Part shown: positions 20,241 through 62,366 of the stretch, in pieces
How positions within the stretch are numbered: the first letter of the stretch is position 1
Layout: each line of letters begins with the position of its first letter
NCBI GenBank assembly: GCA_000091205.1
Contig: AP006493.2
Reading direction: 5' to 3' (one strand)
Length of the DNA stretch: 64,000 bases
Source of the DNA: Cyanidioschyzon merolae
Lineage: Eukaryota
Notes under the pieces: generated by a model
The model's input: the letters and a program-made list of their open reading frames with translations, nothing else
Databases searched by the model: none
Told to the model about the DNA's origin: nothing
Position numbers and translations under genes: made by a program

Positions 20241-20366
20241 GCGCGTTTGTTGATGTCCGTATTATACATGAATGTCGCTGTTGAGAAGGTCGAATCACGA
20301 TCGGTGCGTTTGTTTATGTCCGTACTATACATGAATGTCGCTATTGAGAAGGTCGAATCACGATTG
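20241..20366. repeat. 63-bp tandem repeat, 2 copies, in the divergent intergenic region between the paralogous secreted-protein genes
   Basis: gcgcgtttgttgatgtccgtattatacatgaatgtcgctgttgagaaggtcgaatcacgat is repeated with 4-5 substitutions. Confidence 0.85.
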
Positions 20367-20552
20367 CTGGTATACGGCTCGTAGCTGGGTGCGCGATCCG
20401 GCATCGAGAAGCGCGCTGGAAGCATCTGCGCGGCCACTGGATGAAACGGAAACTGGTGGGATCGGTCCCGAAGGAGAAACGTTACTCGGGTCTGGTGGTG
20501 CGCATCGCCAGTACGTTGCGTTGCGGAGAGGATGCGGCGCGGGTGAGCTGCA

Positions 20553-32116: not shown

Positions 32117-32117
<1 letters not shown>

Positions 32118-32211
<94 letters not shown>
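32118..32211. repeat. (GCGT)~23 microsatellite, ~50 bp upstream of the DNA ligase I start codon
   Basis: Perfect tetranucleotide run gcgtgcgtgcgt... Confidence 0.95.
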
Positions 32212-32215
<4 letters not shown>

Positions 32216-41506: not shown

Positions 41507-43783
41507 GGGTACGGAGGCGGAAGAGCCTCCGCTTTTGCAACGAGCGACAGCTGAACGCTGTGAAACGTCGCAGTTGTAGCGCTATGAGCTGCTTGCACCA
41601 ACCTCCAGCCTGAAAAATGGAGAAGCCTCAGCAACCAGAACCAGATCAAGCGACTAGTCGATGGAAGACTATGGATATTGCGACACAGACGCCAAGTTCA
41701 TACGGAACGAAGCCGAGCAGCAAGTTGGCGCTGAAACGGTTTGTCGGCGTTTCGTGACGGCCACGTTTCCTCGCCAAGCAGCCGCCTTGATGGATCTACT
41801 GAAACTCCGCGAGGAGCGTGTACGTTATCCTCCTGCGGAATGCGGACTTGACGTTTCCGTTTGGAGATTATAGTATCGCCCACAATTTTCCCCTGTGAAT
41901 ACCAGGGCAATACGTCACGTTGTGGGGTTGGATATCGAGATACCGACCAAAATATCACTGTGTGGATATATAGGCTAGGAGTTCATCTCGCTCGTTCGAA
42001 TTTCATGATGTGGACCGTATTGTTTCCACATGCACACCAGCGTATTTCTTGCAGCTCCTCGGTTTGCATATCAGGGTGCATGGACCTCGTTGTGAGGCCC
42101 CCGCGGACACTACGCCCGTACTGGATTTATGTAGAACATTGGAATGTTGGATGTGTGCCTGCCTTGAGATCTTTTTCTTACTTTTTTTACGTGTACATAC
42201 TTGGTATTCGAAGCACAGCGATATGGACTTTCCCACTTATAGGTAGTTATATGATGCCCGGCCGTCTCCTCGGAGTGACTTCATCGACGCTTTGCTGCTG
42301 AAGCTCGTAACAAGCCCAGGACCCAGATAATGAGCGAAGCTCTCGAGCAGCGCTACGAAAATACCCGATTCCATAATCCAATTCATAACTGCAAGAATCT
42401 GATCTTCTCTGTACCTCATGAGTAGCTTGCCCGAACCATGTATTCATCAACTTTTCGAACTCTGTATTTTAAGGCGACGTGTGAGCGCAGCAATGGGCGT
42501 CGCTGGACTGACGACGAGCATAGCTTGACGTGGTCCCTCGATGGCTGCTTCGCAAGCTCACTCCACAAGTTCACTAATCATCTCACGTTAAGTACTCGAC
42601 ACCACTCGAAAGATAAACCCTAAACCCATTGTGGTCGACGACGAGGCGGCATTCGACGGCAGCATGATACCTGTCCAGGGATACGCTCCAATGGTATCCC
42701 GTCTCTTCTCTTTCCATTGAATCTAGAACGCCATCAGCGCAGTGAATGGAAGCAGATACTGAGTTATTGAATGGAACAGAGTGCGCTCGCGGAGGCACTG
42801 GACAAGGTACTCGCAGATGCGATGTCCCAGAAGAGGCCCATGATCCTGGGGTGCGGCACTAGGCGTAAAAGCCGAAGAGATACCGAATAGATCCATCTGG
42901 ACCCGCGAAGAGCATGTGCCGAGCGGTAAAGGAAGCATTGATGCATCACAGTGCGGTGCTCGGAGAAAGAGGTGTCATGGACATATACGAACAAGTGACC
43001 ACAAAATCCTGTAATCACTGCAAAAAGCGCAACGACGCTATCTTTATACGAAAAACATGGAAAGTGAAGCATTGATACCATTTTCCGCCTGTAACTGAGT
43101 TGCGTCGGCAACAGCCGTAATTGATCTCGTCTGTACTCGGACGGCGCCATCAACATCTTTCAACGGCTGACAAGCGGCCTGAGGGCTACGAGTGCCCCGC
43201 TTAGTCGAATCTGGAGATCACAGAGAGGAAAAGGAAGCAGTCCGACAATCGTCACCATAAAGGCTGGAGTTGATAAGCGTCCAAAGACGCCCAAACGTCG
43301 ACGTGTACATCATGGTGAACCGAGTAGAAAATGTTCCATGGTACTCCGCTAGACGAATCGGTGGAGACAGTTCAGCCGCGGCACCAATACCCCCGATAAT
43401 CGCTTCTTCAACAAAACGTCCAAAACTGCCCCTTCCGGGCGGACGCAATCGCTTTGCAACCCAAGTTCGAGGCGCGAGCCAAGCCATTGCGTTGGCGTGT
43501 GAAGCAGCACCGCATTCTGTTCACCCCGGACAACTATTTTTCTGTCGGCTGGTACGGCTTGACCTCGACCGACTTGCACAGTCCGATCGGGTTCTGTGGG
43601 TTTACTGCTCTACTACCTGACTCTGCGAAGTTGTGCAGAACTGAGAGGAACTGTTGAAGCCACGACGAGCTCGAGGCCCCGCTCGTCACACAGGCGAGCA
43701 TCGCCTTGTGCTTTTTCGTGTAAGATAACTTCACACGGTGTTCCATACTTGTTTGCGTCGAATACGCTCCCAGAAAATATTGC

Positions 43784-45604
43784 ATGATGCGCTCTCGTTT
43801 CTCGCGGCAACAAAAGGTGTACCTTCCGGTTATAGGGGGTATGCTGTGCCTCCTGGCGCTGGCCGGGACTAGCACCACGGCCGCCACCCTCTGTGACTAC
43901 TGTTCTCAAATCGGTCGTGCGTGTAACATCACTTTGGGTCAGTGCGTGCCGTGCACGCCAACGAGCGGTTGCACAGAGCGACAAGTCTGTAACACGAATA
44001 CGGGGATATGTGCGGTGAAGGACTTGTTCCATCCGTTCCTATGGTCAGACGGTGTGCTCATTGTCTTGGTGTTCCTGGCTACGGGTCTCTCGAACGCTGG
44101 TGGTATCGGCGGTGGCATCCTGTTGGTGCCATTGCTTTCCCTATTTGCCGGTTTTACGCTGAAAAACGCGAGTGCGAATGCACAGCCGCTCATTTTCGGG
44201 GCATCTATTGCGAACGCAATGGTGAATGTGCCGCGCCGGCACGCAGCTCGCGATACCCCTCGTATTGACTGGAACCTCGTTGCCTGCACCGTGCCGTTTT
44301 TTCTAATGGGAACCACCCCAGGCACGTTCATGAATCAAGCTTTTCCCAGCTACTTCACAGCGTTTGTACTTGCATTGTTGCTCTCAGTGCTGTCAGTGCA
44401 AAGTGCTCTCTTTGGTCTGCGGTTACTGCGCGAACGCCTTCAGGAGCGCCACAAGAACGCCGCCGATGAGCAGACGTGGAAGGCGGAAGCTGCAGGAAAC
44501 GCCGCCGATGATACATTGAGCTCGCGTGTGTCCTCGCCATCTGTTGCGGAAACCGCGATTCCCGTACAATCTAACGAAGTCGACGACTGCGGGCGCGACG
44601 CCACGGATGCCACGAAGCCGTCTGCAGACCGTGCATCGGCCGAGCGGCCAGATTCTTCGGATCCGCACTTGAATCATGAGTCTAGGGGTAACGGGTGCTG
44701 CTCTGCTGCTAACGCAAGCAACGCAGTCGACAGCAGTGATGTCCATGCGACAGGCAGCGAGACAGCTGCGTCCTCGCCGTCTAACAACGTGCATCCGCTC
44801 CGACCTGGCCGGTCGCGGTTCTTATGCTACCTGGATCCACTTCTGTGTGCGCAATCGCGGGAGGAATTGCTCGCAGCCGAGCGACCCTGGTTCCAGTGGC
44901 GATACATGCTCTTCCTGTTGGCATGTTGGTTGGTTCTTTTCATCATCCAAATATTATCCGGAAGTGCCGAGAAGCATTCGCCAGTGGGTGCGCCTCTTTG
45001 TGGAGCGGTCTACTGGATCCTTTTTGCTATTCAGGAATCGGTGCTTTTTGCTATGGGATGCTTCACCATCTGGCGTAATTTGTCTTTGAATAGATTGCGC
45101 GATCGACTGGGATATCCGTGGTACTCGAAAAACGGTCTCGGTGATATCCGGTGGACCAGGGCGCTGATCTTCGGATATCCCGTATGGGCCTTCATTGCCG
45201 GAGTTTTCGGTTCTTGGGTCGGCATTGGAGGAAGCTCGCTGCTGATTCCGTTTCTGAACCTTGTCGGACGAGCAGATCCGGCTACCGTCCAGTCGAGTAT
45301 GTCGCTCTCGAACCTCTTGGGCAGTGCCTCCGGCGCCTTTGTGTATCTGGCCCAGGGCCGCCTCAATATTTCCTATGGACTCTTCTTCGGCCTGTTCGCT
45401 CTTCTAGGCAGTTACACTGGAGTCTGGATGGTATATTTTCTCGTGGAACGCTATCAAATCCGGGCGCTTTTTGTTTTTGCGCTCACGATCTGTTTCGTAA
45501 CGGCACTTGGAGCGATTCTATACATTGCGATTCGGAATACGCTTGGCGTTGAGGCTGCCGGCGTCGGTTGGGTATTTACGAACATTTGCGCCTATGTCGG
45601 TTAA
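43784..45604 (+). CDS. TauE/SafE (sulfite-exporter-like) family membrane protein with two TauE domains
   Basis: Two TauE-type repeats, each with a G-I-G-G-G/S motif (NAGGIGGGILLVPLLSLFAG and WVGIGGSSLLIPFLNLVG), split by a long hydrophilic loop. Signal peptide and a Cys-rich N-terminus. Confidence 0.75.
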   Translation: MMRSRFSRQQKVYLPVIGGMLCLLALAGTSTTAATLCDYCSQIGRACNITLGQCVPCTPTSGCTERQVCNTNTGICAVKDLFHPFLWSDGVLIVLVFLATGLSNAGGIGGGILLVPLLSLFAGFTLKNASANAQPLIFGASIANAMVNVPRRHAARDTPRIDWNLVACTVPFFLMGTTPGTFMNQAFPSYFTAFVLALLLSVLSVQSALFGLRLLRERLQERHKNAADEQTWKAEAAGNAADDTLSSRVSSPSVAETAIPVQSNEVDDCGRDATDATKPSADRASAERPDSSDPHLNHESRGNGCCSAANASNAVDSSDVHATGSETAASSPSNNVHPLRPGRSRFLCYLDPLLCAQSREELLAAERPWFQWRYMLFLLACWLVLFIIQILSGSAEKHSPVGAPLCGAVYWILFAIQESVLFAMGCFTIWRNLSLNRLRDRLGYPWYSKNGLGDIRWTRALIFGYPVWAFIAGVFGSWVGIGGSSLLIPFLNLVGRADPATVQSSMSLSNLLGSASGAFVYLAQGRLNISYGLFFGLFALLGSYTGVWMVYFLVERYQIRALFVFALTICFVTALGAILYIAIRNTLGVEAAGVGWVFTNICAYVG

Positions 45605-47104
45605 AGACTGGTGCTCAGTTGTTCAAGGCAGCGAGCGCGTACGCCATATCCAGCAGGAAACGAATTGCATGCACAGCGCCTAGGCAAGGTGACGTCTGGT
45701 GCGTGTTTTGCTCCTGACGCCAAGCGCTGACGCGATCTCGAGCCGGCAACGAATCGCTTGCCCAGCGTCTACAGAGGCTGAGCTCTCGAGTTTGTTTTGC
45801 TCATTAGAGAGCCAACGCTTCAGTGATCTGCAGTAGGCAACGAACCAGGTACATAGCGTCCAAAGCCATTGCGTGAAAAACACATTGATGCATTTGCAAG
45901 AAACTGCCGTCGACAAGAGCACTGTCGTCGTGTCCAAGCTTAGCGCCCAGCGCTTTCCCGTAAACCTGCGTCAGGCGTTCAGTCTTTGCTATTATCACTG
46001 TGCAGGGTCAGAGCGGAAGAGAGTAGCCGGACAGCACCTGCTCTGCTGAGCTTATCTGAAGGTATACCTGCTGCCCGAATGCAATAGAACCGGTCCTCGA
46101 ATTCTGATGTATAAACAAAGTTTCGGGTCTCTTGCCAATGCCATCAACTTCGGTCGTTGTGAGCTTTGTTCTCAAACCGCTTGCTTTTCTTTTCCCTGGT
46201 CTTTAGCTTTCAATACTTCTGTTAATTCTTTTCTTCACAGCTCCGTTATCAACAGTTGAAGGATGCTGATGGCAGTGTCAGAGCCCTAATATCGCAGCTT
46301 TCAGCTGTTTTCATTGCACTTGCCGCACAGACTCTAGTTCCGATCGGAGCTCCGCTTGAGATGTTCTTTTTCTTTGTTTACATCGTGAGTGCACCCCTGT
46401 CAGCGGTGGCCTTTGACCATGGTGAGCTGTTCGCGTACCTGCACTACACTTTTTCTGAGCGTCGGCATGTGGCGCGTTAGGGCCTGCTTTATCGTGGAAT
46501 ACATCGCGTTCTCGGTTCCAGAACACTACGCGCCATATCCTACCCCAATTACTTACTGCATTCCGCGTCATATGATCACGGGCTCGCACTGAGCGATGCC
46601 ATCGGCGAGTACGCTGTATCACCGAGGCGCAAGCGCAATCGGCTCCATTTGCCGAAGGATTTGTGGATGACGATGTTGCCCACGGTGAATCAAGCACCGG
46701 TTGGTAAACCCAAGCTCGAGAACAAGTCGAGAAATTTCGATCCGTCTACCCTCTCATCGTAGAAAGCAGAGACGCACTCTCCACGGAAAGCGATCGCGGC
46801 GCTAGCTAAATCCCGAGTCCGGGACCTTTTTCCGTATGAACGGTTGGGACGGTAGCCTCTTCGAAAATAACCCCGTGAGAGGTATCATGCTGGTGTCGAA
46901 ATGTACACCGCCGATGGCAAAAACAAGAGGAGAATTTGGCTTTCGACTGGAATCGATTATTTGAGGTGAAATGTTTAGAGAACTTTCGGCATGCGCCTAT
47001 GAAGATGTCTTCAAGGGACGACGTCTGGTATTGTATCCCGTAAATCCAGCCGCGCACATTGATGCGCTTACGAACTGCCTTGACACCCAAATACCGAAAA
47101 CATG

Positions 47105-47400
47105 ACGAATGAGTGATTTCAGCATGCTGCACATAAGGAACGGAGGAGTGTGGAGGCTTGTACGCATATCATTGGGCAATGGTATCCGATAATTTTGCGA
47201 TCCCTTGTTTAGAGGTGTCGCGCAACATCTTGATTCCGTGGTCGTTACGAATCCAGTCGGCAAAAGGGCAAAGAGGCCTTTCCGAATAGACGAAAGCAAG
47301 TCCTAAAACCAAGTCGGCATCCTTTAGCTGTTAGTGCTCCACCTCGACTGTCGTGGCTGCACATCTGCAAAATTTCTGTTATTCGAAACGCAGGAACAGA
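47105..47400. repeat. Copy A of a ~300-bp dispersed repeat family (~80% identical to 54165-54460)
   Basis: Aligned by eye. Example: gatttcagcatgctgcacataaggaacgg...cccttgtttagaggtgtcgcgcaacatcttgattccgtgg versus gatttgagcatgctgcacctgagggaagg...cccttgttcgagggcgtcgcgaatcatcctgattccggtg. Confidence 0.7.
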
Positions 47401-48623
47401 TTGAGCGGGTCAGTGCTCCGATTGAAGTCCACAGAGGTTTAACGTGGAAAGGCTGCTTGAATCGAATATCCCGGGGCCTTTTTTCGCAAATCCTTTTTTC
47501 ATGTACGCAAGTATCTTGGACGCACCCGTGTTCCAGCAGACCAGCGTCGCAGATGCAGTGGTTGTACTATTCGATAGGAACCAAGCAAGCGCAGGTACCA
47601 TATTCCATAATTGTTTCCTCGGTTCGGGTATCAAGGCCCCTGAGGCCATTTGCAAGGGTTCTGATCTTTGCCAGACAAAACCTTCTATGCCCGCTTGCAG
47701 CGGATACCGTACCTCGGCAGCGCGACGCTCCGGACAGCGCGTCGACTGCATATGTCTTACAGAGACAAGGCCGTCTCGCCACAGTGCTGCGGGTGTCAGT
47801 TGTGGGCCACTAGCCGGCAACGGGGCACGTACGTGTTCGCCTTCCAATTTTCTCCGTTGACAAAACGTTTCCTTCGGCCAGCGTTCTCAGATTACGCGCA
47901 TTTTTTTTCTTGGTTCTTTATGTTTTTTTTTCAGTGCACGGTGCAGTATACATCAAACGCCCTACTTCTAAGTTACATTAGCTATACTTCTTCTCTGATA
48001 TTCTGGTCGTTTCATATGTCCTATCATGTGTGCCTTGTGCCTCCCGAAAGCGACAGCAATGGCGCCTATAGCGCCGGTGCGGTCGCTGCACTTAGACAGA
48101 ACGGCGTTGCCGCACCATACAGAGGGCGTCGGCTCGAGGGTTCGCCTTCCAATGCCCTGCGTGTGGCTCCAGGTTGGAATCCTGCACGCTATGGTAACGC
48201 TCTGCACAGGAGCTCCATAAATGTGCTATCTTGTACATATATAGGTAGTTTCAAGCCAGTGCATGATGCAGATGCCATGGACATACACCGCGCTGCGGTG
48301 TCGGCGCTTTGCGGACACCAGCGGTTCGCGCCAGATTGCAACAGTTGATTTCCCTTCGTTAAGTAAGGGAATTGCCTTATGCGCAGCGTAGATATTTTCG
48401 CCGCCGTTGGCGCACGACGGGCACACGAGACCCTATCCATCTCCCCGCAGAGATTGAGGATTATCGGAGAGGCCTCTCCAGACGTTTTGGATTCTGTTAA
48501 ACAACGAAGCGGCTTGAGCTGCTGGAGCGCTTACTCAACTGACTATTGGTTACTTTCTGGTTAAGTTTGGGTATTATTTAACTTATCTGTGGGAGCAAAC
48601 AAGAGACACGAGTTGCGCGTCGC

Positions 48624-49280
48624 GTGCCAGGCGCTATGAACCAGGGCGGTGCACTCGGAGGGCAGGCGGGCGTTTCACGTACGAACCCTCCCATGAACGG
48701 CGCGACAAGCGATCAAAGCCACCGGCAGGAAGAGAAACTTCTCCACAAATACGGGAACCTTCCGAACCGGCGAGACATTCTTCAACGAAGGCTGCGTGCG
48801 AACCACTTGCACGAACGAAAGTTTTACGACAGCGCGGATGCGACCCTGGCGAAAGCCGGGCGGGAGAGTGTTGACCAGGTTGGCGAGTTTCATCCGTATG
48901 TGCCGCCGGGGCTGACGCCTCTCACTCGTCGTGGACTGAACGGGACCTGCTCCGCCGACCAGAATAGTGGCGGAAGTTCAGCAGACGAGGGCAGCGATTC
49001 AGTGCACGGTCGCCCCAGGCCGGACGCAACAGCTTCGCTTGCTGGTACCGATGAGATCGGATCGAACGGTGACCGAACGCGACTACCCTCTTTTGGTGCT
49101 GAAATACAGCGAGAAGGCTCAATGGCCTCTTCTGGCTCATCCATCGGTTCCGCTGCAGGCTTCGTTCCGCTTCGGAGAAGTGCCGAAGTGCAGCGCAGTG
49201 AGTTGCCACCTGTTGCTGAGCCGGACTCGGTTGTCCTCGGTTTCCCAGAGCGTCAAAATGAGGAGAGTATCGGCGACTAG
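48624..49280 (+). CDS. Endosulfine/ARPP-19/Igo-family protein, a candidate PP2A-B55 inhibitor and Greatwall substrate
   Basis: KLLHKYGNLP...ILQRRLRANHLHERKFYDSADATLAKAG aligns to ENSA KLKAKYPSLG...[23 protein letters not shown]. The phospho-acceptor Ser is conserved, as YDSAD versus FDSGD. Confidence 0.55.
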   Translation: MPGAMNQGGALGGQAGVSRTNPPMNGATSDQSHRQEEKLLHKYGNLPNRRDILQRRLRANHLHERKFYDSADATLAKAGRESVDQVGEFHPYVPPGLTPLTRRGLNGTCSADQNSGGSSADEGSDSVHGRPRPDATASLAGTDEIGSNGDRTRLPSFGAEIQREGSMASSGSSIGSAAGFVPLRRSAEVQRSELPPVAEPDSVVLGFPERQNEESIGD

Positions 49281-49656
49281 GCAACGAGCATATTCTTGCA
49301 GCGATGTCTAATAGCTCCCGTGTAGGAACGTACTTGCGAACGAAACTATAAATCTAACTGGTCAACTCATGAGTCGTCAGGCTGAGCAATGCAGGCAGAT
49401 GCACTAGCACCAGACCCGCACACAACGGTGCTCTCAGAGGCAGGGCGCAACGCCCAACTCAGCGCGGGAGTGTGCGCCCTATGAAGATGGTCCACTGCAA
49501 ACTAGGCTTGTTCGACGCGCGACTTGCGTTCAGAAGACGCTGCTTAGGCCGCACTGGACTGCACCGCCAAGTCGAAAGTCATCGGTAGCTTCGAGCGCTG
49601 CGTACGCTCCCGCTTCAGCACCGCTGAGCAGAGCGGCTCGCAGCAAAAGCGGAATC

Positions 49657-50169
49657 ATGGGTGAAGCACCAGGCACTCCCAGTCGTTCCGAATACGCAAG
49701 TGCGCCCGGTGCCTCTTTTTCCGAGTCGGAAACGGAGCGAGTGCTGCGTGAGCTGCTTCTCGATGGAAGTTTTGATGATCTTAGGAGTCAAATTCTCGAA
49801 AAGCTACGCACGAGCGGCGAACTGGATACTTTAAGAGTGCAGGCGGAGGCGGTCGCTCAGGGCGCTGTCGAGCGGCACGAGGACGAACTGCAGCGAGCGT
49901 TCCTCACTGCACTTGGTCGCATCGAAGACGCGAGACGAAGTGAGCTGCTGGCACAGATTCGTGCCGAACTTTACCGAGGCGAACTCTCCCGTGTGTTTGA
50001 CCGAAAACTTCGCAGGGTACTCAACCGCGGTGAGTTTGCAGAAAAGGTCTGGCAGAGCCTTTCCCGAGCCTACGCTCGAGTGCACGCGGAGCACGTGCAT
50101 CACACCGAGGCGTCTGGCGATGTTAAGGTCGGTGCAGCAAGTGCAACACAGAAACCCTCTGCGCTGTAG
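49657..50169 (+). CDS. Small helical or coiled-coil protein. Weak ENY2/Sus1-like resemblance. Function unknown.
   Basis: 170-aa ORF. ERVLRELLLDGSFDDLRSQILEKLRTSGELD resembles the ENY2 helix-hairpin. Weak. Confidence 0.35.
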   Translation: MGEAPGTPSRSEYASAPGASFSESETERVLRELLLDGSFDDLRSQILEKLRTSGELDTLRVQAEAVAQGAVERHEDELQRAFLTALGRIEDARRSELLAQIRAELYRGELSRVFDRKLRRVLNRGEFAEKVWQSLSRAYARVHAEHVHHTEASGDVKVGAASATQKPSAL

Positions 50170-50842
50170 CCAGGTCGACGTGCGGCGACGAGCGTTGCGA
50201 ATCGTGCGAGTTTTGCGGTTTCCCAGCGAGCTCTTGGTCGTCACGCGGTCGATTGAGGTGTTTCCATGAACAGAATATATCTATGAAATAACGTTTTCGT
50301 CGAGTGTCTATCAAGGAATTGATACTCGTTTCAGGAGACGCATGGAGTTTCATGCGTGTCCCGGAATGAGACGCGTGGCGCCGTACGACGATGGAACCTG
50401 CGCCGCCCGAAAGTCTGTCCCGAGCCCAGCAACAGCTCGGAATGGCGTGGCATTCTCGGAAAACGAGACCAGGAAAGCGCTCATGGGCTTCGAACGTTCC
50501 CCGTGTTTGCTTTGAGATGGATGCAGTCACAGCCACGCCTCGCCCGCGCTACATGCAGTAGGAGAGAGCGCGTTCACGTCATTGAGGCATGGGCAGTCGA
50601 AACGACGCTGGCGTTGCAACGTCAGCGCACACGCTGTATGAACGTGGCCCTCCTGAGGGTACTACATATCTAGTGCTGCAGCTGTCAATACCGGTTCTGC
50701 GACCGCTGCCGCCAGTCGCTGCTCCCAAGCTACACGGGCGCCCCGGATTCTTTCTTCGTCTGCAGCAGCCCTGCAACAGAATCCGCGCTTGGCATTGGAA
50801 CCCATCCACAACGTGCATCGATCACTTATCAGAGTCGCCAAC

Positions 50843-52711
50843 TCAAGAGTCTCCCGCGCCACTGTTTATTACTGGTTCCAGCTGTGAAGCGACCGGTGAG
50901 CTCCCGGGTGTTAGACAGAGCGTCTGGGGTGCACTGCCTGTGAGATAAATCCTGTTCGCAAAGGAAGAAACTCGCGCAAGTTGCACACTGGGCAACGCCA
51001 ACATGCTCGCAAAGACGTAACCGGTGCAGAAAGCGTCATATCCTGCCGAATGGGCTGCCCTGTCCAACGTAGCACTCTGGGCATCGCCCGAAGCAGCGTC
51101 CGCATGCAACGGAGGCATCGACGCGAAGCGCGCTGCCTCTGCGTTATCATCGCCAGCGACAAACATACTGTTACCCAAGGATGATTGACACGCTGCTGTT
51201 GCTGCTGCTCGACAGCCAGAGACTGGATCATTCGACCGTTTGGGGTAAGTTTCAGGAGGTTTCTGTCCAGCAGACCTGTCCTCGAGGTGTTCCGATTCAT
51301 CCGGAGAGAAACTCGTGACAAACGCATCCACCGATGAAGGCTGCTCCGTTGGCCGTTCTGAAACCGGTATCCCCAAAGATTCACTCAAGTCCAGCGATAT
51401 ATGCTGCGACTTCAGGGTCTCGCAGATGGCTGCGGGACTCGTGTCCAGGGTACATGCACTCTCCATCTCTCGCACAGCGTGCCCGCCGTTGGGTTGGCAT
51501 GCCTCTACTGCAACTGCTTCATCGAAGCCGTCACCTGTTTCAGTTTTTGAAGCTTCATCTGCGTCAATGATTTGATCGATGTCGTGAGAGAAACGACAGT
51601 CTCCATCCAAGCGGCAATGTCCTGAACGCGCATACCGCTTGCAGACTCGAGGGATCGCAGCGGGAGAAGCTGCGGCTCGCGACCCATAAATTGTCGCTTT
51701 CTTGGAGACGTAACCGGGCGCTGCGAGCTCCGGAAATTCTATCCGGACACCTCGTTGGGTCCGAAACCATCGACGCTCATATTTGCGAAAGACGTACTCC
51801 AGATATGCGGGACAATCACGTAGACGTGCGGGCACGAACTCTCCCAGCACTCTCGTATCGAAAAAGTAGCCGGGACACCGCGTTGCTAGCTGCGTCCTGA
51901 ATTCTTCGACGCTCGGCGGTAGCGGCGCTTCGAACGCCGCAAACATAAGCAACAGATCATAGAGTCCGTTGTGGAAAATGACGGGTTTACCGCTGCCCAG
52001 GAGGACGCTCAGTACATGCAGCGGCTCGGCCGCGGGCTGCGCTGTCGAGTTGCATCCACGATGCCTCTGGGTCCGGCGACGAAGACGCTTGGGCTCTGGT
52101 GTGCGCTCGGCACCCAAGCCGCGTTCGCGGGCAACGCTGATATGACCGAAACCCGACTGAGACGCTGCATCCTCGGTTGTGCCTCCAGGAGCTGGCACTG
52201 CACGAGCTGCCTCATGGAGCGCGTCTTCAGCAGCAGCGACGCGCCGGTACGGAATCCCGTGTGCGAACACTCTGTTAAAGTCCATACCATGCCGTACCAA
52301 AAAAGCTGCAGTATCACCGGATATCGTAAAAGCATCCTGACAGTGAAAGTAAAACTCCAAGACGTGGGCCTGATAGGCACAGACTGCTGGCACTTGCACC
52401 TGAAGCGCTTCCCGGTCCGCGGTTACCTCACTGAGGCCGCAAATCGCTCTGTGCAGCTCCTCGCACTTGGCGGTGAAGCAAACGATCCCGACTGAGAAAA
52501 TTGCGCTCGTCCCCGCTAAGCGGCGAAGGGCTTCATAGCGTACACTGAGGTCCGCAGAGTGGACCGCGGGATCCTCGCCAGTTCCTGAAAACTCTACGTC
52601 AACAGCCAGGAACGTGCAGTGGCGAAGACATTGGCCAAGCGCTTCGAGACCATCTCGATGATTCCGCCTATCAAAGCGGTAACACCTGCAACCAAAAGAG
52701 TCAGACCGCAT
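50843..52711 (-). CDS. PARN/TOE1-like CAF1-family (DEDD) poly(A) ribonuclease with an internal CCCH zinc finger
   Basis: DEDDh motifs LAVDVEFSGTG, VIFHNGLYDLLLMF and HSAGYDAFCTGYVF. C3H1 finger CKRYARSGHCRLDGDCRFSHD. Acidic and serine-rich tail. Confidence 0.75.
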   Translation of the reverse strand: MRSDSFGCRCYRFDRRNHRDGLEALGQCLRHCTFLAVDVEFSGTGEDPAVHSADLSVRYEALRRLAGTSAIFSVGIVCFTAKCEELHRAICGLSEVTADREALQVQVPAVCAYQAHVLEFYFHCQDAFTISGDTAAFLVRHGMDFNRVFAHGIPYRRVAAAEDALHEAARAVPAPGGTTEDAASQSGFGHISVARERGLGAERTPEPKRLRRRTQRHRGCNSTAQPAAEPLHVLSVLLGSGKPVIFHNGLYDLLLMFAAFEAPLPPSVEEFRTQLATRCPGYFFDTRVLGEFVPARLRDCPAYLEYVFRKYERRWFRTQRGVRIEFPELAAPGYVSKKATIYGSRAAASPAAIPRVCKRYARSGHCRLDGDCRFSHDIDQIIDADEASKTETGDGFDEAVAVEACQPNGGHAVREMESACTLDTSPAAICETLKSQHISLDLSESLGIPVSERPTEQPSSVDAFVTSFSPDESEHLEDRSAGQKPPETYPKRSNDPVSGCRAAATAACQSSLGNSMFVAGDDNAEAARFASMPPLHADAASGDAQSATLDRAAHSAGYDAFCTGYVFASMLALPSVQLARVSSFANRIYLTGSAPQTLCLTPGSSPVASQLEPVINSGAGDS

Positions 52712-54164
52712 ACAGCGGAGGCGCTTGCCCTAGACAATATGCACAACAACGACCTTGACCGAATGCAACTGACGTGCAGCGAATGTGTTGTTGCAGCGCT
52801 GCCTGGTACTCCGCATCTCCACTGGATGCCGTTGCTGTGAGTTGGCGTCTTGGAAGAGCGGATATGAGCTGCTGCATCGAGAAATGTGAGTGTGTGTTTC
52901 AAATCGGTTCGTATTTCAGAGGAAAATCTCGTTCACGTTGCTTGAGGCTTCCATACGGTGATCTCTGTTGGCAGGCTTTAGTTTGCAGGTGCCGCGGAGA
53001 AGAAGTCGTTTGGGAAACGGGAGAATTTGTTCAAACCTCTTCAAAACAGTATTAGGCGCTGCTTTGGAACGAAGCAAGGCCTCATAAGGAAAACAAGAAT
53101 TTCGCTTGAACGCGTTTAGAGAGCACTCCACCGCCGTCTGAATAACATGGATAGCGTCCAATCTGCGAACTCGGGTGTCCCGTCCAGTAGTTTGGGCCAC
53201 TTGCCACTGTCATCAACACCTGCCTTCGCGGACCTTTTAGCGTCTGCTTCCTGTGCCTCTGTCTCATTTCCGGACTTTAATATGTCGGTTTCTCCTGTGC
53301 GTCGAGCGCTGTTTTCAGCAGTCGAAGAATGTTGAGGGCATCGCTAGAGTTTTGATTTCGTTGCTTCCCGTTATAGTCTACCCCTTCCAGGTACAGCGCA
53401 GAGTGCGATCCCGCTTCGTTTGCTGCTCTTGTCTTCTTTCTATACAGGCATGGTGCGCCCTTCGCAGCGGTGACGCTTAACTGTGGTCAGATGTTCGACG
53501 ACGTCCACCATTCTTCTTCCATGAGCCACACTGTCGCGAGTGGATGTTTTCGCCATCGCGCAGTGCATCTTTTTGACGAGTACAGTATCCTGCTCCTGGC
53601 AAACTTCTCCGTTTTGGTGCCCACTGCCTTGAACGCCAATCACGGGCTCCTGATGGATGATGTCCACCCGCAGCGAGAACGCTTTCTGCTGAATGCACCA
53701 GCGCACGCTGTTCCATTCGATAATGGGCTCCTAGAAAGCAATATATTGTCCACGATGACATAACGATCGGAAGGAAAACCCAGGCTGGAGAACAGTTCGT
53801 GACATTTTGAACCGTCGACGCTACACTCACGCAAAACGGTGACGCATTCTGAACTCGTAGCGATCTCTGTGATGACTCAGTTCCGTGTTCAAGACCTTTC
53901 TCCATGCAAACAGTAGAGATGTGAGCACTCAGGGCCGTATTCAGTCGAAAATATTCTGCCGCTGTGAAATCGTGGTTCTTCGCTGGACTCGAAAAAGGCA
54001 GGATTCGTCATTGGAACGGAACATATTATTGAACGAGAGCAGTGCAGCGGGCTTTCGGCATGTGCTTGTGGACGAGTCGTCAAAGGCCGACTCGGAGTCG
54101 TTTTCCCTGTCAACATGGTGGCGCGCGTTGCTGTGCTCGGTAGATTTCCTGAAACAGAAGGATC

Positions 54165-54460
54165 AAAAAGCTAGGAGATTGCTTGATTTGAGCATGCTGC
54201 ACCTGAGGGAAGGAGATATGTGGATGCATGTAGGATAGATCTGGGTAACGATATCGGTTATTTTACGAACCCTTGTTCGAGGGCGTCGCGAATCATCCTG
54301 ATTCCGGTGACGTAGCGAATTTTAGCGGTAAAGACATGAAAGCGTAACACCGAAAAGAAGAATGAGAATCCAAGAGCATTATGAATCCATAAACTCTTAT
54401 TGTTCCACTTCGAATGCTGAGTCTGTACATCTAAAAATAGCTCAGGGAAAAATCAAGGGG
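54165..54460. repeat. Copy B of the ~300-bp dispersed repeat family, in direct orientation with copy A
   Basis: See copy A. It overlaps the implausible ORF 53885-54238. Confidence 0.7.
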
Positions 54461-55404
54461 CAGAAAAAGAGCGTGCATTTCCATACTCTACGGTGTCGTG
54501 ACTAGAGAAGCAATTGCGTTATGCAGTAATTCTAATCTTTCGGAAGGGGAATTCTTCTAAAGCTCCCGTCGATACCTGCAACGGGAAAGCGTTTCGTGAA
54601 CGTGAACCTCATAGATCACCACGGTGCACCGCATGATGCTCTATTTCAACGAAAAGCTCTGTGATCAATGAGCTGAAACCATGAATACCCGTGAGAGTCT
54701 CGAAAAGCTGGCCACGGAAGCCTCTTCTCATATTCTGAAGAATCCTACGAGCAAGCGTCCCGCTCTACTCAAGCAGCCACGGCTCTCTCCGCCACGAACA
54801 TTCGAGGCGTTTTTTCATTGATCAAGGAGCAGCATCTGCACGAGTAACCGGTCAAACGGCAAGCTGGCGTGCACGGGTTCCGCTCTGCCGAAAAAACAAC
54901 AAGCTCCCCAGCAAGCGAACGCTGTGAGCACTCGCAGATCCATCGCATAGCATCTGCTGCGCTTCGGCATGATCCAACCCAAACTCACTTCTCCCTGGCA
55001 AGCTCATCGCTTCTGCAAGGTCGAACGCGTTGCAGCGACGCCGTCCGCAAGAAAACTGTGAGAAAACGAACGGACCACTACGTTTCTCTCGAGAGTTTCA
55101 GGCAGCAAACTGAACCGCACCCTACGTCGCAACAATATTTGCGATAGACGTTCCTGTATGTCATACATCATGCCAAAACTTGCTCTCATTCCGTTTCCTT
55201 GTCCTCGCCAAAGGCCGCCGCAGTCCCCTAGGCTGCTGCTCCCCAGACTCGTGGAGTTGCGTTGCGCTGAAACGTCTGAGGGCGCGGCGGGCGCCGTATG
55301 CAGCAGGCCCGGCATCGAACTCGAAAAAGTCTAGAGTTCAGTGCTTGGGATGCCTGTAGTCGTAGGTTGGTTCTCCAGAACGCCCCACTGTTCAGCAGAG
55401 TGCC

Positions 55405-58400
55405 ATGGCACCAACAACTAAGCGGAAAACCAAGTTTTCTCTGCTGGACTTGCGAGCTGAAGTTTCCGTCCTTCAGGAGCGACTTGGTTCCGGCTCTCGG
55501 GTGCTGAATGTTTACAACCTAGGCCGCAAGACGTACCTGTTAAAGTTATCAGTGCCGCCGTTAAACGCTTCAGGTCGGATACCAGCGACTGAGACTGAAG
55601 AAGCATGGGCAACTGGTGATAGCAGCTGGCGCAGGGAGTACCTGTTGATCGAGTCTGGTGTTCGCCTGCACACCACGAGGTTCACGCGTCAAGCCGCTGC
55701 TGCTGGTACGGCAGCAGCGTCGCTCGTGAGCCGCCAAAAAATTGGTACAGATGAGACTCTGGACAACTCCATCGCTACGGACCTCGCCCACATGGACTTG
55801 GATGAACGGGACCGGGAACTGCAGCTCGTACTCCAGCGACACCGAGCACTTGCAGAGCACGAGCAGCGAGCACAGTCTGGAACGGGTGCAAACGCAGAAC
55901 TTCCATCTGGTTTCACGCTCAAGCTGCGAAAGCATCTGCGAACACGGCGCCTAGCTGAAGTTACCCAACTCGGTATCGATCGCGTCGTAGACTTTCGGTT
56001 CGTGGGTGGGTCCCAATCCGCCTCTGCCTACAAGGCCAGCGCGAACGGGCAGCCTTCGCGGGCTGCGCTCGAGAACCACCTCATCGTTGAGCTGCACTCG
56101 GGCGGCAACATTATCCTCACTGACGGAGACTATCAGATTCTGGCTGTGCTCCGCGTCTTCCGAGCGGAACCAAGGCCGCTTGCAGATTCCGCAGATCAGC
56201 GGGATCCTCCGGCAACGGGACCCGGATCCCGGCGCATGCAACAACAAGACGCTGTCGTTGGTGCGCGCTACGACATCAGTCTAGCACGACAGTTTGCACC
56301 TTTGACGTACGATCGTCTACACGAGATTTTTCAAGAGTGTTACCAAAAGCGTCAGCGAAGCGGCGGAGACCAGCTTCGCGACCTCCAACGCAATCTCGGG
56401 CGAGCGCTAGGCTGGGGTCCTGAACTCATTGAACACGTGCTGCTCGAGGTAGGTGCACCATCGCCTGATCCGCTGCCAGAATACGAGCAACGACTCTATC
56501 GCGTGCTCTGTGAGGCGGCAGCATTTCTATCAGAGTCGCCTCGAGAGGGATATATATTGCTGCGTCCAGTAGCAGAGGGAGCGTCCCAGGCCTCTGGTGC
56601 TGACTCCGAGGATGTTTCAGATCGCTATTGCGAGTTCACGCCTCGTTTACTACGTCAGCACCAGCATCTGGAGCCACGAATGTTTCCGTCCTTCGACGAA
56701 GCGGTAGATGAATATTTTGCTCGAATGGAAGAACTACGGTATCGACAGGAAATTGAGAATCGACAACGGCAGGCACAGGGAACACTGGAGCGCATGCGCC
56801 GTGAGCTCGAAACGCGAGTGCTTACGCTAAAACAGCAGGAAGAGCGCTGTCTGCGAAAGGCTGCACTCATTGAGACGAATTTGGTGGATGTCGACAACGC
56901 GCTGCAGGTCATAAGAGCAGCACTAGCGTCTGGTATCGACTGGAAGGAATTGGACCAAATGCTGGTACTAGAGCGTCGTCGAGGGAACCCCGTCGCGCAG
57001 CTCATTCATTCGCTGCAGCTGCAAGAGAACCAGATGACGCTGATGCTTGCAGATGATAGCGGCAGCGTGGACAACACCGATGCGGAGACGGGGAGCTCAT
57101 CACGGCAGCGGCGTCCTGCCGAGACGCGAGACCTCTCGAACGAGGACTCAGCGAGCTCTGTAGAGAGCGCAAGCGAGGACGAGTCGGGCGACAGTACGTC
57201 CGTGTGCTCCTCCAGAGTGGAGCTCGTCCAAGTGGACCTGAGCCTAAGTGCCTTTGCTAATGCTCGACGTTATTATGAACAGCGAAAGAAAGCAGCGGAG
57301 AAGGGCACCAAAACGATGGAAGCGAGCGCTCAAGCGCTTCGGGCTGCCGAGAAGAAAGCGCTGGAAGTGCTCGCCGGCACTGCCTCGAAAAACAAGCGAA
57401 AGAAAGCAACACCCCTGAATACGTTGAAAGCAATACGGAAACCGCTATGGTTCGAGAAATTTCGCTATTTCATCACTTCAGAGAACTATCTCGTGATTGC
57501 CGGGAAAGACAGTCAACAGAATGAACAGCTCGTGCGTCGATACCTTGAGGAGAACACCGGTGACCTCTACATGCATGCGGACGTTCACGGGGCAGCAAGT
57601 GTCATTATCAAAGGCAAAAAGAATCGTCCGGCGCCCCCGCTATCGATCCAAGAAGCAGCTATCTTTGCGGCCGCCTGTAGTTCCGCATGGGACGCCAAAG
57701 TCGCTGTCAATGCCTATTGGGTATATCCGGAACAAGTTAGCCGCACTGCTCCCAGCGGTATGTATCTGCAGCAGGGTAGTTTTGTGATTCGCGGATCCCG
57801 GAACTACGTACCGGTGACGACGTCTGGATCTGGCCCGTTGGTCATGGGGTTTGGGTTCCTCTTTCGACTGGCTCCGGAGTCTGTGTGGCGTCATATTGGG
57901 GAGCGCCCTGTACGCAGCGGCCCAGACTCGCTGCAAGAGGCGCAAGCTGCTGGAGCGCCTCAAAAACAACAACAGCAAGTCGAGGGTGCTGGCGAGCGAA
58001 TCCTCGAGATCGAGTCGGACACACTGAATGCGACTCTAGGTGAAGATGCGCACATCACAAACGTGAACGGAGCAAGTCGAGCTGGTCAACATTCCGCTGC
58101 AGATACCATTACCACCGAAGCGCGAAGTCCTCTTGGTCATGATGGCGGTATGCAGGCCACCAAGGCCGCAATTGGTGTCAGGAGCCACTCAGAGGCCAAC
58201 GGAGCATGTGTTGATGCGGGCTCAGGTCTTCCAGATGTATCTCCTGATCGGCCGCAAGATACCCATGACAACGTTACGCTTCCGATCGCTAGTGATACTA
58301 CAACGAGAACGGATACGCGTAATGGAAACAGCCCAGGGACGATACCGGGCTCGCATGCTCGCACCACGCTCCAACTACCGTCGTCATCGTCGGAAACGGA

Positions 58401-59520
58401 TCCTAGCAACCAGAGCGTTCACTCTACGCACGCTCCAAAGCAAGTGGGTGTCGCTGAGACGCTTACTACCGGTATCCGCAGTGACGCTGCTGCCAAAGCA
58501 CCAGGTGAGATATCGCTGCAGCGCTCCGTGCAGGCTACAGAGGCGCGCTCCGCTGCAGCCTCTGGTGCCGAGGCATCCCGAGCGAAACCTGTTCGCGGCA
58601 AAAAGTCCAAACTTCGAAAGCTTCGGCTCAAGTATTCCGATCAAACTGAGGAAGAGCGTGAGGCAGCGCTCAGGTTACTCGGCACTACCCGAATGCGTAT
58701 TATGGAAGCACGTGATCGTGAGGGAGCGGCCACTGAGGCGCCTGCATCGAGCAGCGTGAAACAAGCCGCGGGCGTTGACCAGGGTACCAACACGACTGTA
58801 CAGCGAAATGTGAACGCTGAAGAAGCGCCTGCATCGAGCAGCGTGAAACAAGCTGCGGGCGTTGACCAGGGTACCATCGCCTCTGCTCAGGGACAGACAA
58901 GTGCTCAACGGAACGGTACGTCGGCAGCGCCCGCAACACATGCACAGGGGCACGCTTCGACTGGCAGTGCGGCTTCCGAGTTGCCCCTAGAGACGCATCG
59001 CGCTGCACGGGAAGAGACGCACTTTCAGTGGCAAAAAATAGACCAGGTGGAAGTGTCCAAGATTTTGCAAAGTGCGTCTGCCGCATTGGCGGAACACTTG
59101 AGCGAAGCGGAGCTCGCGAATCTCAGTGAGCTGGACCTGTTTACCGGGTGCCCGCACCCGGACGACGTGTTAGAGTACGCGTTACCTGTCTGTGCCCCGT
59201 ATCAGACGCTTGCCAAGTACAAATACAAGGTCAAGTTGGTTCCGGGAACCTTGAAGAAAGGCAAAGCGCTCAAGCAAGTGCTTGGGGTCGTCCAGAGCCA
59301 AGAACGCTCAGGTGCGCGTACCACAAATGCTGCGAATGCCGGGGCAGACGCTTCGGAGGTGGCCCAAGGAGCAGCTGCAACTGCGAGAGAGCTTGAACTT
59401 ATTCAGGCGGTGGATGAGACTGTGCTCGTGCAGCAAATGTTGGGAAATGTCCGTGTGCTTGCTCCTGGTCTCCAGGAGAGTCAACGCAAGAAACGAACGC
59501 AGAAGAAAAGCCGCGGGTAA
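55405..59520 (+). CDS. NEMF/Rqc2/Tae2 ribosome quality control complex subunit (NFACT-N, NFACT-R/DUF814), with a long disordered Ser/Thr/Ala-rich insertion
   Basis: N-terminal FbpA/NFACT-N (YLLKLSVPP...LLIESGVRLHTT). DUF814 core FRYFITSENYLVIAGKDSQQNEQLVRRYLEENTGDLYMHADVHGAASVIIKG. C-terminal NFACT-C with a basic tail. Confidence 0.85.
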   Translation: MAPTTKRKTKFSLLDLRAEVSVLQERLGSGSRVLNVYNLGRKTYLLKLSVPPLNASGRIPATETEEAWATGDSSWRREYLLIESGVRLHTTRFTRQAAAAGTAAASLVSRQKIGTDETLDNSIATDLAHMDLDERDRELQLVLQRHRALAEHEQRAQSGTGANAELPSGFTLKLRKHLRTRRLAEVTQLGIDRVVDFRFVGGSQSASAYKASANGQPSRAALENHLIVELHSGGNIILTDGDYQILAVLRVFRAEPRPLADSADQRDPPATGPGSRRMQQQDAVVGARYDISLARQFAPLTYDRLHEIFQECYQKRQRSGGDQLRDLQRNLGRALGWGPELIEHVLLEVGAPSPDPLPEYEQRLYRVLCEAAAFLSESPREGYILLRPVAEGASQASGADSEDVSDRYCEFTPRLLRQHQHLEPRMFPSFDEAVDEYFARMEELRYRQEIENRQRQAQGTLERMRRELETRVLTLKQQEERCLRKAALIETNLVDVDNALQVIRAALASGIDWKELDQMLVLERRRGNPVAQLIHSLQLQENQMTLMLADDSGSVDNTDAETGSSSRQRRPAETRDLSNEDSASSVESASEDESGDSTSVCSSRVELVQVDLSLSAFANARRYYEQRKKAAEKGTKTMEASAQALRAAEKKALEVLAGTASKNKRKKATPLNTLKAIRKPLWFEKFRYFITSENYLVIAGKDSQQNEQLVRRYLEENTGDLYMHADVHGAASVIIKGKKNRPAPPLSIQEAAIFAAACSSAWDAKVAVNAYWVYPEQVSRTAPSGMYLQQGSFVIRGSRNYVPVTTSGSGPLVMGFGFLFRLAPESVWRHIGERPVRSGPDSLQEAQAAGAPQKQQQQVEGAGERILEIESDTLNATLGEDAHITNVNGASRAGQHSAADTITTEARSPLGHDGGMQATKAAIGVRSHSEANGACVDAGSGLPDVSPDRPQDTHDNVTLPIASDTTTRTDTRNGNSPGTIPGSHARTTLQLPSSSSETDPSNQSVHSTHAPKQVGVAETLTTGIRSDAAAKAPGEISLQRSVQATEARSAAASGAEASRAKPVRGKKSKLRKLRLKYSDQTEEEREAALRLLGTTRMRIMEARDREGAATEAPASSSVKQAAGVDQGTNTTVQRNVNAEEAPASSSVKQAAGVDQGTIASAQGQTSAQRNGTSAAPATHAQGHASTGSAASELPLETHRAAREETHFQWQKIDQVEVSKILQSASAALAEHLSEAELANLSELDLFTGCPHPDDVLEYALPVCAPYQTLAKYKYKVKLVPGTLKKGKALKQVLGVVQSQERSGARTTNAANAGADASEVAQGAAATARELELIQAVDETVLVQQMLGNVRVLAPGLQESQRKKRTQKKSRG
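58735..58908. repeat. In-frame 87-bp tandem duplication inside the NEMF coding sequence (EAPASSSVKQAAGVDQGT... x2)
   Basis: gcgcctgcatcgagcagcgtgaaacaagc(c/t)gcgggcgttgaccagggtacca is repeated with period 87. Confidence 0.85.
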
Positions 59521-61934: not shown

Positions 61935-62366
61935 ATGCCCGAGTCAGAACCTATCAAAGACCGTCGACATGGCTGTCTTGTGGTCAATATAATTCGCCGC
62001 ATGCGTTCACTAAGAAATACGATCAAAGAAGGCACAGGATGTGAAGTTTCCGTTCCGTTGATGCAAACGTCGATGAAGAGCCGCGGGTTGTCGACGAATC
62101 AAGCACGATTGTATGAAATACCGTCGCGCGTTGAACAGTACTCTGTCGATCTCGTCATGAGACAGGAACGCTTATTACAGAAGGAACAGCTTCCGTTTCA
62201 CTCGATGGGACTTTATCCAGAAGAAATGGTAGACATGGACATGGGTACTCAAAGAGCGGCAGCACGCTGCTCGAAGAGACGAGGCAATCGAGGATTCCGA
62301 CGACATCTGCACGAGCTGCGATGCGATCGTGTGGTCGCCTCCAAGTCGCCAAAAGAACAGGATTGA
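61935..62366 (+). CDS. Hypothetical small basic protein, doubtful
   Basis: 143-aa ORF in an AT-shifted intergenic block with no recognisable domain. Confidence 0.15.
   Translation: MPESEPIKDRRHGCLVVNIIRRMRSLRNTIKEGTGCEVSVPLMQTSMKSRGLSTNQARLYEIPSRVEQYSVDLVMRQERLLQKEQLPFHSMGLYPEEMVDMDMGTQRAAARCSKRRGNRGFRRHLHELRCDRVVASKSPKEQD

Follow-up and report, generated by a model that had tools for sequence, protein, structure and literature searches.

The window examined here is a 64-kb stretch of chromosome 11 of Cyanidioschyzon merolae 10D, in which the 1371-aa NFACT protein (55405-59520) and the 606-aa TauE protein (43784-45604) are exact matches to the C. merolae 10D proteins BAM80593.1 and BAM80590.1, respectively. 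C. merolae is a red alga that serves as a model of a "minimal" eukaryotic genome, and because this genome is nearly intronless, gene-free blocks of 2-4 kb are conspicuous in it. Two such blocks, on either side of the endosulfine, 170-aa and CAF1 (PARN-like) genes, hold the related segments A and B, which we interpret as dead copies of a ~1.38-kb DNA transposon containing a fragment of a Fanzor1 gene. A first-pass annotation, made from the sequence alone, had described these blocks as gene-free and AT-shifted, and their GC content is indeed 0.46-0.52, compared with 0.55-0.60 in the adjoining genes.

The same annotation had reported roughly 80% identity over at least 250 bp between positions 47105-47400 and 54165-54460. 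Related segments do occur at these places, with a similarity far above chance; the identity was overestimated, as the 296-bp segments are 67-68% identical (191/284 and 197/290), while shuffled controls run through the same aligner give 55 +/- 2.7%. The top local match in BLASTN joins 47114-47252 to 54184-54320 (139 bp at 73.4%, E ~1e-16). A core motif beginning cccttgtt, which had been quoted as common to the two segments, was found in both A and B and corresponds to an SRRPRTRVR linker joining two putative helix-turn-helix (HTH) motifs. To the left of the noted segments, collinear blocks continue at a constant offset of ~7070 bp, and the full homology covers ~1.37 kb, 46067-47439 against 53129-54509, with 840 of 1347 positions identical (62%).

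A and B had been taken for a second repeat family, separate from a "first" repeat pair in the window. This separation did not survive a profile search with nhmmer, which unites A, B and the first pair in one family. Both segments also match the two arms of a 1.35-kb inverted pair (3390-4741 / 11001-12352, 98% identical) and a stretch near 42.6-42.8 kb, and the profile ties them to 3364-4746, 10996-12370 and 42139-43380. The last of these, the fifth copy, was recovered as 42139-43352 at E = 9e-62 and 9e-46 by a profile built from R1, A and B that excluded it. The window thus contains five copies of a ~1.38-kb family, listed below with the ends of A and B obtained by extending the nhmmer match with end alignments.

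Copy A: 46067-47439, minus strand; complete but dead, with a consensus identity of 73%, 14 in-frame stops and 5 frameshifting indels; nhmmer profile positions 2-1336 at 47410-46078.
Copy B: 53129-54509, minus strand; complete but dead, with a consensus identity of 75%, 7 stops and 10 frameshifting indels; nhmmer profile positions 1-1336 at 54481-53141.
Copy R1: 3388-4772, minus strand; one arm of the "first" family of the earlier annotation, 68% identical to the consensus.
Copy R2: 10971-12354, plus strand; interior 98.65% identical to R1 and inverted relative to it, with diverged ends and flanks.
Copy R3: 42113-43357, plus strand; 73% identical to the consensus, with ~175 profile positions deleted (583-758, which takes in the second-Asp motif and the transposase/Fanzor junction).

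Together these copies occupy about 10% of the window, and independent copies are 49-58% identical to one another. A three-way alignment of A, B and a third sequence runs for ~1,350 bp almost without gaps and then drops sharply to ~30% identity beyond both ends. Homology stops at the element termini, and the same element is present at many unlinked loci, so that the proposal that A and B flank the endosulfine/170-aa/CAF1 block as a unit is unsupported.

A scan of metagenome contigs from C. merolae-like organisms returned 46 loci, nearly all of which cover the same profile positions (~20-1371) and which reduce to 15 distinct copies beyond the five of the window. From 19 copies we derived a consensus of 1,336 nt, to which individual copies are 68-76% identical, with a mean decay per copy of 6.1 stops and 8.6 frameshifting indels. 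In one metagenome copy (L012 / L014, ~3538-3823), the last ~160 bp, equivalent to profile positions 1150-1311, are present in two to three tandem repeats.

The R1/R2 pair deserves separate mention. These copies lie 6.2 kb apart and are 98.65% identical over an interior of ~1,340 bp, while their terminal inverted repeats (TIRs) and flanks have diverged as in unrelated members. Recent transposition was ruled out as the source of this likeness, given that the identity stops within the TIRs; the pattern suggests that ectopic gene conversion, which would then be active in this genome, has homogenised a pair of old copies lying in inverted orientation.

Scans for open reading frames (ORFs) revealed nothing long or convincing in any single copy, only short ORFs that are not protein-like. 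For instance, the plus-strand ORF at 53885-54238, which overlaps copy B, is not protein-like, as the first-pass annotation had judged, and the ancestral coding strand is the minus strand. An early verdict that the family is non-coding, drawn from equal tblastx scores of A against B on both strands together with the short ORFs, was overturned by the consensus frames. The mismatches among R1, A and B show no 3-base periodicity, because the copies decayed neutrally after insertion. A majority consensus of four copies contained a 398-codon minus-strand "ORF" that proved to be a frame-hopping artefact, although it seeded the protein searches: its translation had weak matches to the TnpB zinc-ribbon domain and to IS630, none to sequences in PDB, and related ORFs in hot-spring metagenomes. 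A pure TnpB/IS605-type element was also considered, and was dropped once a DDE_3 frame emerged in the 19-copy consensus.

That consensus has two long frames, which correspond to the minus strand of A and B. Frame 1 runs for 234 codons with a single stop (chance ~2.7e-4), and frame 2 for 181 codons with none (~2.6e-4). From its ATG, frame 1 reads MYSLDIRSAAIRAYGF..APSTLCRW..SRRPRTRVRKIT..LFVAIDETAFDSSMIPLTGYAPRGSR..VIAAIASSG..CFIMDNIAFHK, and its landmarks are two putative HTH motifs followed by ..FVAIDETAF..GYAPRGSR.. and ..FIMDNIAFHK. Frame 2 reads ..RMEQRALACAADSVLAEGIAQKKPVIVGYGTGRGNGGGHRGEPSVPVKGMYRAMKQ..VVDIWEHLTTVKCHRCEG..FRLCMKCVDNSRKQRNRDFNAAINILRL.., with the landmarks ..PVIVGYGTG.., ..WEHLTTVKCHRCEG..CMKC.. 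and ..NRDFNAAINIL, and its stop lies ~40 nt short of the profile end.

The domain content of the consensus identifies the two parts. Pfam DDE_3 matches at E = 6e-10 (39.6 bits, the cut-off being 28.6) over profile positions 3-113 of 146, and the NCBIfam IS630 transposase at E = 5.9e-18 over positions 20-238 of 299. The first and second transposase Asp motifs are present, and the third acidic residue is missing because the frame is truncated at DDE_3 position 113 of 146. HTH profiles all remained below threshold (HTH_33, E = 4e-4; HTH_Tnp_Tc3_2, E = 9e-4; HTH_32, E = 0.018). Similarly, the second part matches PF07282, the TnpB zinc-ribbon "TNB" domain of Pfam (E = 1.8e-7, with 31.6 bits for a cut-off of 26.3); its match to NCBIfam guided_TnpB, at E = 0.002, covers the last 60 positions of that profile (329-388 of 389). 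The consensus stretch TTVKCHRCEG...CMKC...NRDFNAAINIL agrees with the motif given by Bao and Jurka, [TS][TS]xx, a four-cysteine zinc ribbon, x(5,50) and RD. A complete split RuvC (with the RuvC-I Asp, ..DPG..), WED and REC are absent: homology to full-length Fanzor1 proteins begins ~205 residues before their C-termini, and only the last ~180 residues are retained in the consensus, so the element holds a Fanzor fragment and not a Fanzor gene.

These assignments extend to the raw window. In tblastn searches, the 322-aa transposase P0076 (Pfam DDE_3, E = 3e-29) matches the minus strand of A at 47167-46603 (E = 7e-12); the Fanzor1 proteins P0065, P0039 and P0043 align to B on its minus strand, at 53722-53241 (E = 1.5e-7 to 1.4e-6); and P0103 matches R3 (E = 4e-8). 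Mapping the consensus landmarks onto A and B gives the following remnants, to which the termini of A are added.

Transposase remnant in A: 46660-47364, minus strand; ATG-equivalent at 47364-47362, followed by two putative HTH motifs and the first two catalytic Asp motifs.
Fanzor1 C-terminal remnant in A: 46116-46659, minus strand; alternative RuvC-II Glu motif, zinc ribbon and RuvC-III RD..NAA..NI, all decayed.
Transposase remnant in B: 53728-54430, minus strand; ATG-equivalent at 54430-54428, with the originally noted 54165-54460 segment at this end.
Fanzor1 C-terminal remnant in B: 53184-53727, minus strand; the conceptual translation still reads ..VEHLTTVKRHRCEGRT..
5' TIR of A: 47412-47439, minus strand; reads AACCTCTGTGGACTTCAATCGGAGCACT, with TA just outside at 47440-47441.
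3' TIR of A: 46067-46091, minus strand; TA just outside at 46065-46066.

The ~300-bp segments first noticed (47105-47400 in A) accordingly comprise the 5' untranslated region, the start codon and the first ~86 codons.

The termini were defined by aligning the ends of 16 copies, in which conserved sequence extends beyond the profile by 28 nt on the 5' side and by 12 nt on the 3' side. The consensus ends are 5' TA|GACTTGTGTCAGATTAAAATGGAAC ... 3' GTTCCATTTTATTCTGACATGGGTG|TA, and the reverse complement of the 3' end is CACCCATGTCAGAATAAAATGGAAC; the two TIRs, each ~25 bp long, agree at 20 of 25 positions. TA occurs at each inferred flank in 6 of the 16 copies, compared with a background of 3.1% (P ~5e-6 per side), an enrichment compatible with a TA target-site duplication. 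In copy A both flanks carry TA; in copy B neither does.

To assess constraint, we compared 28 kb of the window with seven metagenome contigs of close strains, 99.3-99.5% identical to it. Variable sites per kb number 25 in A, 13 in B and 21 in R3, against 2.6-6.4 in coding sequence and 7-45 in other intergenic DNA, which makes the copies 3-6 times as variable as coding sequence. Since they vary as other intergenic DNA does, there is no detectable purifying selection on the copies. No presence/absence differences were observed among these strains, all of which carry the copies fixed. The highest density in the 28 kb compared among the seven strains, 45 variable sites per kb, was found at 52712-53132, just beyond the 3' end of copy B.

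Our findings thus rest on a common family membership, sharp boundaries, consensus domains above their gathering thresholds, TIRs, TA enrichment, decay, the absence of purifying selection and a parent architecture present elsewhere. We conclude with high confidence that A and B were inserted independently, long ago, and are now inactive copies of a ~1.38-kb cut-and-paste element that belongs to the Tc1/mariner-IS630 type and contains a Fanzor1 fragment. Its founder would have joined the first ~235 codons of a DDE transposase directly to the last ~180 codons of Fanzor1, presumably through internal deletion of a ~3.2-kb composite with the order TIR-transposase-Fanzor1-TIR; such a deletion would remove the transposase C-terminus and the N-terminal two-thirds of Fanzor1 while keeping both TIRs. 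Within the main C. merolae family, the transposase and Fanzor parts are offset by one base in reading frame, and no compensating indel was detected at the junction in any of the 19 copies; a working enzyme was therefore most probably not made. The coding capacity of the founder probably did not go beyond a truncated transposase, and a full-length relative recognising its TIRs would have mobilised it in trans. Because all copies are similarly far from the consensus, a single old amplification burst followed by neutral decay is the suggested history.

Several considerations count against this interpretation. Single copies, even when frame-corrected (A, B and R1), have no significant Pfam match, the best values being E = 0.099 for HTH_Tnp_Tc3_2 in A and E = 0.14 for DDE_3 in R1, and the classification therefore depends on the consensus together with tblastn. 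Evidence for a TA target-site duplication is statistical rather than exact, with B lacking TA on both flanks, and the ends are uncertain by a few bases because the outer TIR bases are poorly conserved. No full-length autonomous partner was retrieved from C. merolae itself, and both the composite parent and the intact fusion P0037 described below come from metagenome or Sequence Read Archive (SRA) samples. The genome-wide copy number, of the order of 10^2, is an estimate extrapolated from five copies per 64 kb and one partial copy in ~67 kb of unrelated flanks. Finally, the family is not described in the literature searched, but may already exist in Repbase.

The first-pass annotation had offered an old, diverged mobile element as one explanation, and this general idea holds, while the specific candidates named with it fit less well. 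A short interspersed element (SINE) is contradicted by a 1.38-kb unit with TIRs and protein-coding remnants, which has no poly-A or A/B-box logic and no tRNA-like sequence according to ARAGORN. A solo long terminal repeat (LTR) is at odds with inverted, TA-flanked termini enclosing a transposase remnant, and no LTR retrotransposons have been reported for the C. merolae genome (PMC1955436). The closest guess was a miniature inverted-repeat transposable element (MITE), as the family does consist of non-autonomous DNA transposons with TIRs; it is a full-length internal-deletion derivative, and not a miniature. The TIRs whose presence was to be checked are thus there, ~25 bp long and flanked by TA. 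The other explanation put forward, a conserved non-coding RNA or regulatory module shared by two loci, was not borne out: ARAGORN and Rfam found no tRNA and no RNA family match in the window, strain variability resembles that of other intergenic DNA, and the mismatches between copies have no pattern of constraint. In a broader form, in which A and B would be long non-coding RNA genes, promoters or chromatin boundary modules kept by use, this idea can draw on the reported transcription of C. merolae interspersed repeats (Nozaki et al., PMC1955436), on the many C. merolae transposable elements that lie under H3K27me3 (bioRxiv 10.1101/2022.10.24.513474) and on the scarcity of gaps in the copy alignment. 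We nevertheless consider it very improbable, since the density of variable sites among strains is at least that of other intergenic DNA, no Rfam family matches, pairwise identities of 49-58% are what is expected of copies ~74% identical to their consensus that diverged independently, and the consensus restores ORFs, which is unexpected of a functional RNA. The 3' end of the intact relative at locus L054 also lacks excess folding (z = -0.3); specifically, an omega-RNA was not detected in its 3' 277 nt, which fold no better than shuffled sequence (z = -0.32), although the test is a weak one given how poorly omega-RNAs can be modelled.

It is harder still to credit that A and B are what is left of a tandem segmental duplication of ~7 kb, that is, paralogous intergenic DNA, even though they share an orientation and all their blocks keep the ~7070-bp offset. 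Homology ends sharply at the element termini, with flanks at ~30%; no significant similarity was found between 45.6-46.0 and 52.7-53.1 kb, nor between 47.5-48.6 and 54.5-55.4 kb; the genes between and beside the copies are mutually unrelated; and the 1.35-kb unit recurs with the same boundaries at no fewer than 15 other loci, in both orientations. A further alternative invokes the dominant interspersed repeat that the literature describes in this genome (PMC1955436, PMC3627910). Nozaki et al. (2007, PMC1955436) reported a 3.2-kb element in 253 copies with an ORF weakly similar to WSV486 of white spot syndrome virus (WSSV), and Bao and Jurka (2013, PMC3627910) described CMe-1A, a Fanzor1-family element of 3,169 bp with ~150 copies and no TIRs, and listed a Fanzor1 (SWv-1) in WSSV. 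Because WSSV carries SWv-1 and the sizes of ~3.2 kb agree, CMe-1A / TE-N2_CMe is probably the 253-copy WSV486-like element. Membership of A and B in this repeat (253 or ~150 copies) would account for the Fanzor1-like sequence and the NRDFNAAINI motif common to both, and CMe-1A fragments do lie in the same gene-free blocks, for instance at 47856-48193 by A. Against this, the 19-copy consensus and the published CMe-1A consensus share just 29 bp in BLASTN, at the RD..NAA motif, so the two families differ; the units measure 1.38 and 3.17 kb; CMe-1A reportedly has neither TIRs nor a transposase part; and the CMe-1 protein, taken like the CMe-1A consensus from the supplement of Bao and Jurka, has lost the zinc-ribbon cysteines that the A/B family keeps. 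We regard this membership as highly improbable.

CMe-1A fragments are nonetheless abundant in the window, and one lies close to copy A.

CMe-1A fragment (TE-N2_CMe-like): 47856-48193, plus strand; consensus positions 2-315, nhmmer E = 1e-27, 417 bp from copy A and outside the element.

A decayed CMe-1A at 37494-38943 (plus strand; consensus 1249-2722), to which the CMe-1 Fanzor1 protein aligns at E = 3e-7 in tblastn, lies in the 4.4-kb gene-free block 35350-39778. Around R1, two internally deleted CMe-1A copies, in which ~700-1050 is joined to ~2830-3060, are inverted relative to each other at 2101-2706 (plus) and 4811-5364 (minus) and are ~65% identical; their inverted arms (2229-2642 / 4907-5324) had been considered as long TIRs of R1, which this identification ruled out. 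More pieces occur at 9462-9636, 24943-25196, 31841-32102, 62586-62838 and 63311-63986. Other repeats of the window include a short dispersed repeat at 36530-36637 / 62233-62340 (108 bp at 69%, ~400 bp by profile search), a (TGCG)n microsatellite at 32117-32212, a 63-bp tandem duplication at 20243-20368 (92% identity) and an 87-bp in-frame repeat at 58735-58893 within the NFACT gene, which duplicates the peptide EAPASSSVKQAAGVDQGT.

The C. merolae genome is often quoted as containing ~0.7% transposons, with only eight class II elements and one enigmatic interspersed repeat. Our analysis shows the AT-shifted gene-free blocks of this region to be transposon graveyards that hold a second family, which belongs to the Tc1/mariner-IS630 type and includes a piece of Fanzor1. 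The decay of single copies would explain why it was missed or mislabelled by homology-based and by automated annotations; probably, it has gone unrecognised so far because single copies are too decayed for domain searches. In an automated re-annotation of C. merolae, the elements named are Mutator, Helitron, CACTA and "unknown", with no Tc1/mariner among them. The family should be masked before these blocks are mined for promoters or non-coding RNAs, and it adds a second, older Fanzor1-linked invasion of the Cyanidiales. A and B themselves are ordinary, two dead transposon copies; the family, together with a recurrent transposase-Fanzor fusion, is modestly interesting, and neither is described in the literature searched.

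The closest described systems are mariner/Tc1 transposons with a captured Fanzor1, namely PUl-1, PUl-2 and PGv-1 (Bao and Jurka 2013, PMC3627910). Both they and the A/B family have TIRs of ~24-33 bp and TA flanks, and in both an IS630/mariner DDE transposase, whose N-terminus carries a paired-like HTH (putative in the A/B family), precedes Fanzor1 sequence on the same strand. The N-terminal part of our consensus aligns with the PUl-1 mariner transposase over both Asp motifs, and the C-terminal part with the Fanzor1 C-termini of CRe-1, PUl-1, CVu-1 and CMe-1 (sequences from PMC3627910). Unlike them, the A/B family lacks ~1.8 kb, in which the end of the transposase, bearing the third catalytic residue, and the first ~450-500 residues of Fanzor1, RuvC-I among them, would be encoded; it has many copies in C. 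merolae, compared with 1-8 in those systems; and it is dead in every copy examined. The same two-gene arrangement was found in a relative of the A/B family on a 3,273-bp contig, where a 307-aa transposase (P0047), starting MYSLDLRNTAIRLY as the consensus does, is directly followed by a 636-aa PF07282 protein. The full-length Fanzor1 proteins closest to the C-terminal part of the element, P0044 and P0038, are encoded on L055 (JGI 3300028372, a 32.7-kb contig) and L056 (JGI 3300035702), next to Peptidase_S74, RNA ligase, 2OG-Fe(II) oxygenase, ATG8 and UvrD genes, a context that looks like a giant virus and suggests a viral route into the Cyanidiales.

A further related arrangement is P0037, an intact 449-aa ORF on Logan contig SRR33769809_43855 (locus L054, 2,090 bp). 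It consists of two HTH motifs, DDE_3 positions 3-93 of 146 and then the PF07282 zinc ribbon; it is 30% identical to the consensus across 96% of its length, has the same transposase breakpoint straight after DNxxxHK[ST], and carries a homologous 5' TIR, TA|CACCTCCCTGACTTTAGAATGGAAC. P0037 differs from the main C. merolae family in that its ORF is unbroken and in frame and has ~25 more junction residues, and its halves are 46-50% identical to unfused proteins, compared with 29% to the C. merolae consensus. An L030 / L050 subfamily keeps 119 extra junction bases (L030 ~3070-3190), which places its transposase and Fanzor parts in the same frame; it is likely the original in-frame fusion and the source of the main family. 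Via L030, P0037 and the C. merolae family also share an approximate Fanzor breakpoint. The relatives of P0037 fall into two sets, ~300-330-aa transposases matching residues 1-239 and 500-850-aa Fanzor1 proteins matching ~236-434, and no second intact fusion was present among the best 150 matches in a HMMER search of 1.84 billion representative proteins. AlphaFold2 modelling from nine sequences was unusable (predicted local distance difference test, pLDDT, 50); a 76-sequence alignment gave a mean pLDDT of 85 and a predicted template-modelling score (pTM) of 0.49. The resulting model has two three-helix bundles that Foldseek matches to the Pax paired domain and Mos1; the Foldseek matches are at E = 2.5e-5 for the SpuFz Fanzor and at E = 1.5e-4 for the Mos1 transposase. 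This confirms the two parentages of P0037, and not a single shared active site.

Such a protein raises the question of whether the fusion of a transposase to a Fanzor1 C-terminus could be functional rather than a deletion accident. The N-terminal part would then supply the RNase-H strands beta1-beta4 and two Asp residues, and the C-terminal part the second half of RuvC with its Glu, the zinc ribbon and an Asp, so that the C. merolae family could go back to an autonomous element of 1.4 kb in which a hybrid nuclease drove transposition. P0037 exists intact, and the breakpoints common to it and the C. merolae family, together with halves nearer to unfused genes, would imply either recurrent selection for the chimera or a mechanism that regularly produces it, such as the reverse transcription of a spliced transposase-Fanzor mRNA into DNA. 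On the other side stand the single intact example, the out-of-frame junction of the main family and the uncertain packing of the model (pTM 0.49), and we consider a functional fusion unlikely.

Two known repeat classes of the same host complete the comparison. CMe-1A resembles the A/B family in its host, in its TE-rich (transposable element-rich) gene-free blocks, in the Fanzor1 C-terminal motif and in its old, diverged copies, and differs in that intact copies of it still exist. For the eight "class II elements" of C. merolae, weak BLASTX similarity to bacterial transposases was reported, with E-values from 0.07 to 6e-7 (PMC1955436), and an IS630-like remnant such as that of the A/B family would give matches of this kind. 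We suspect that these eight are the best-preserved members of the A/B family, which is larger than eight, with five copies in the window and 15 elsewhere.

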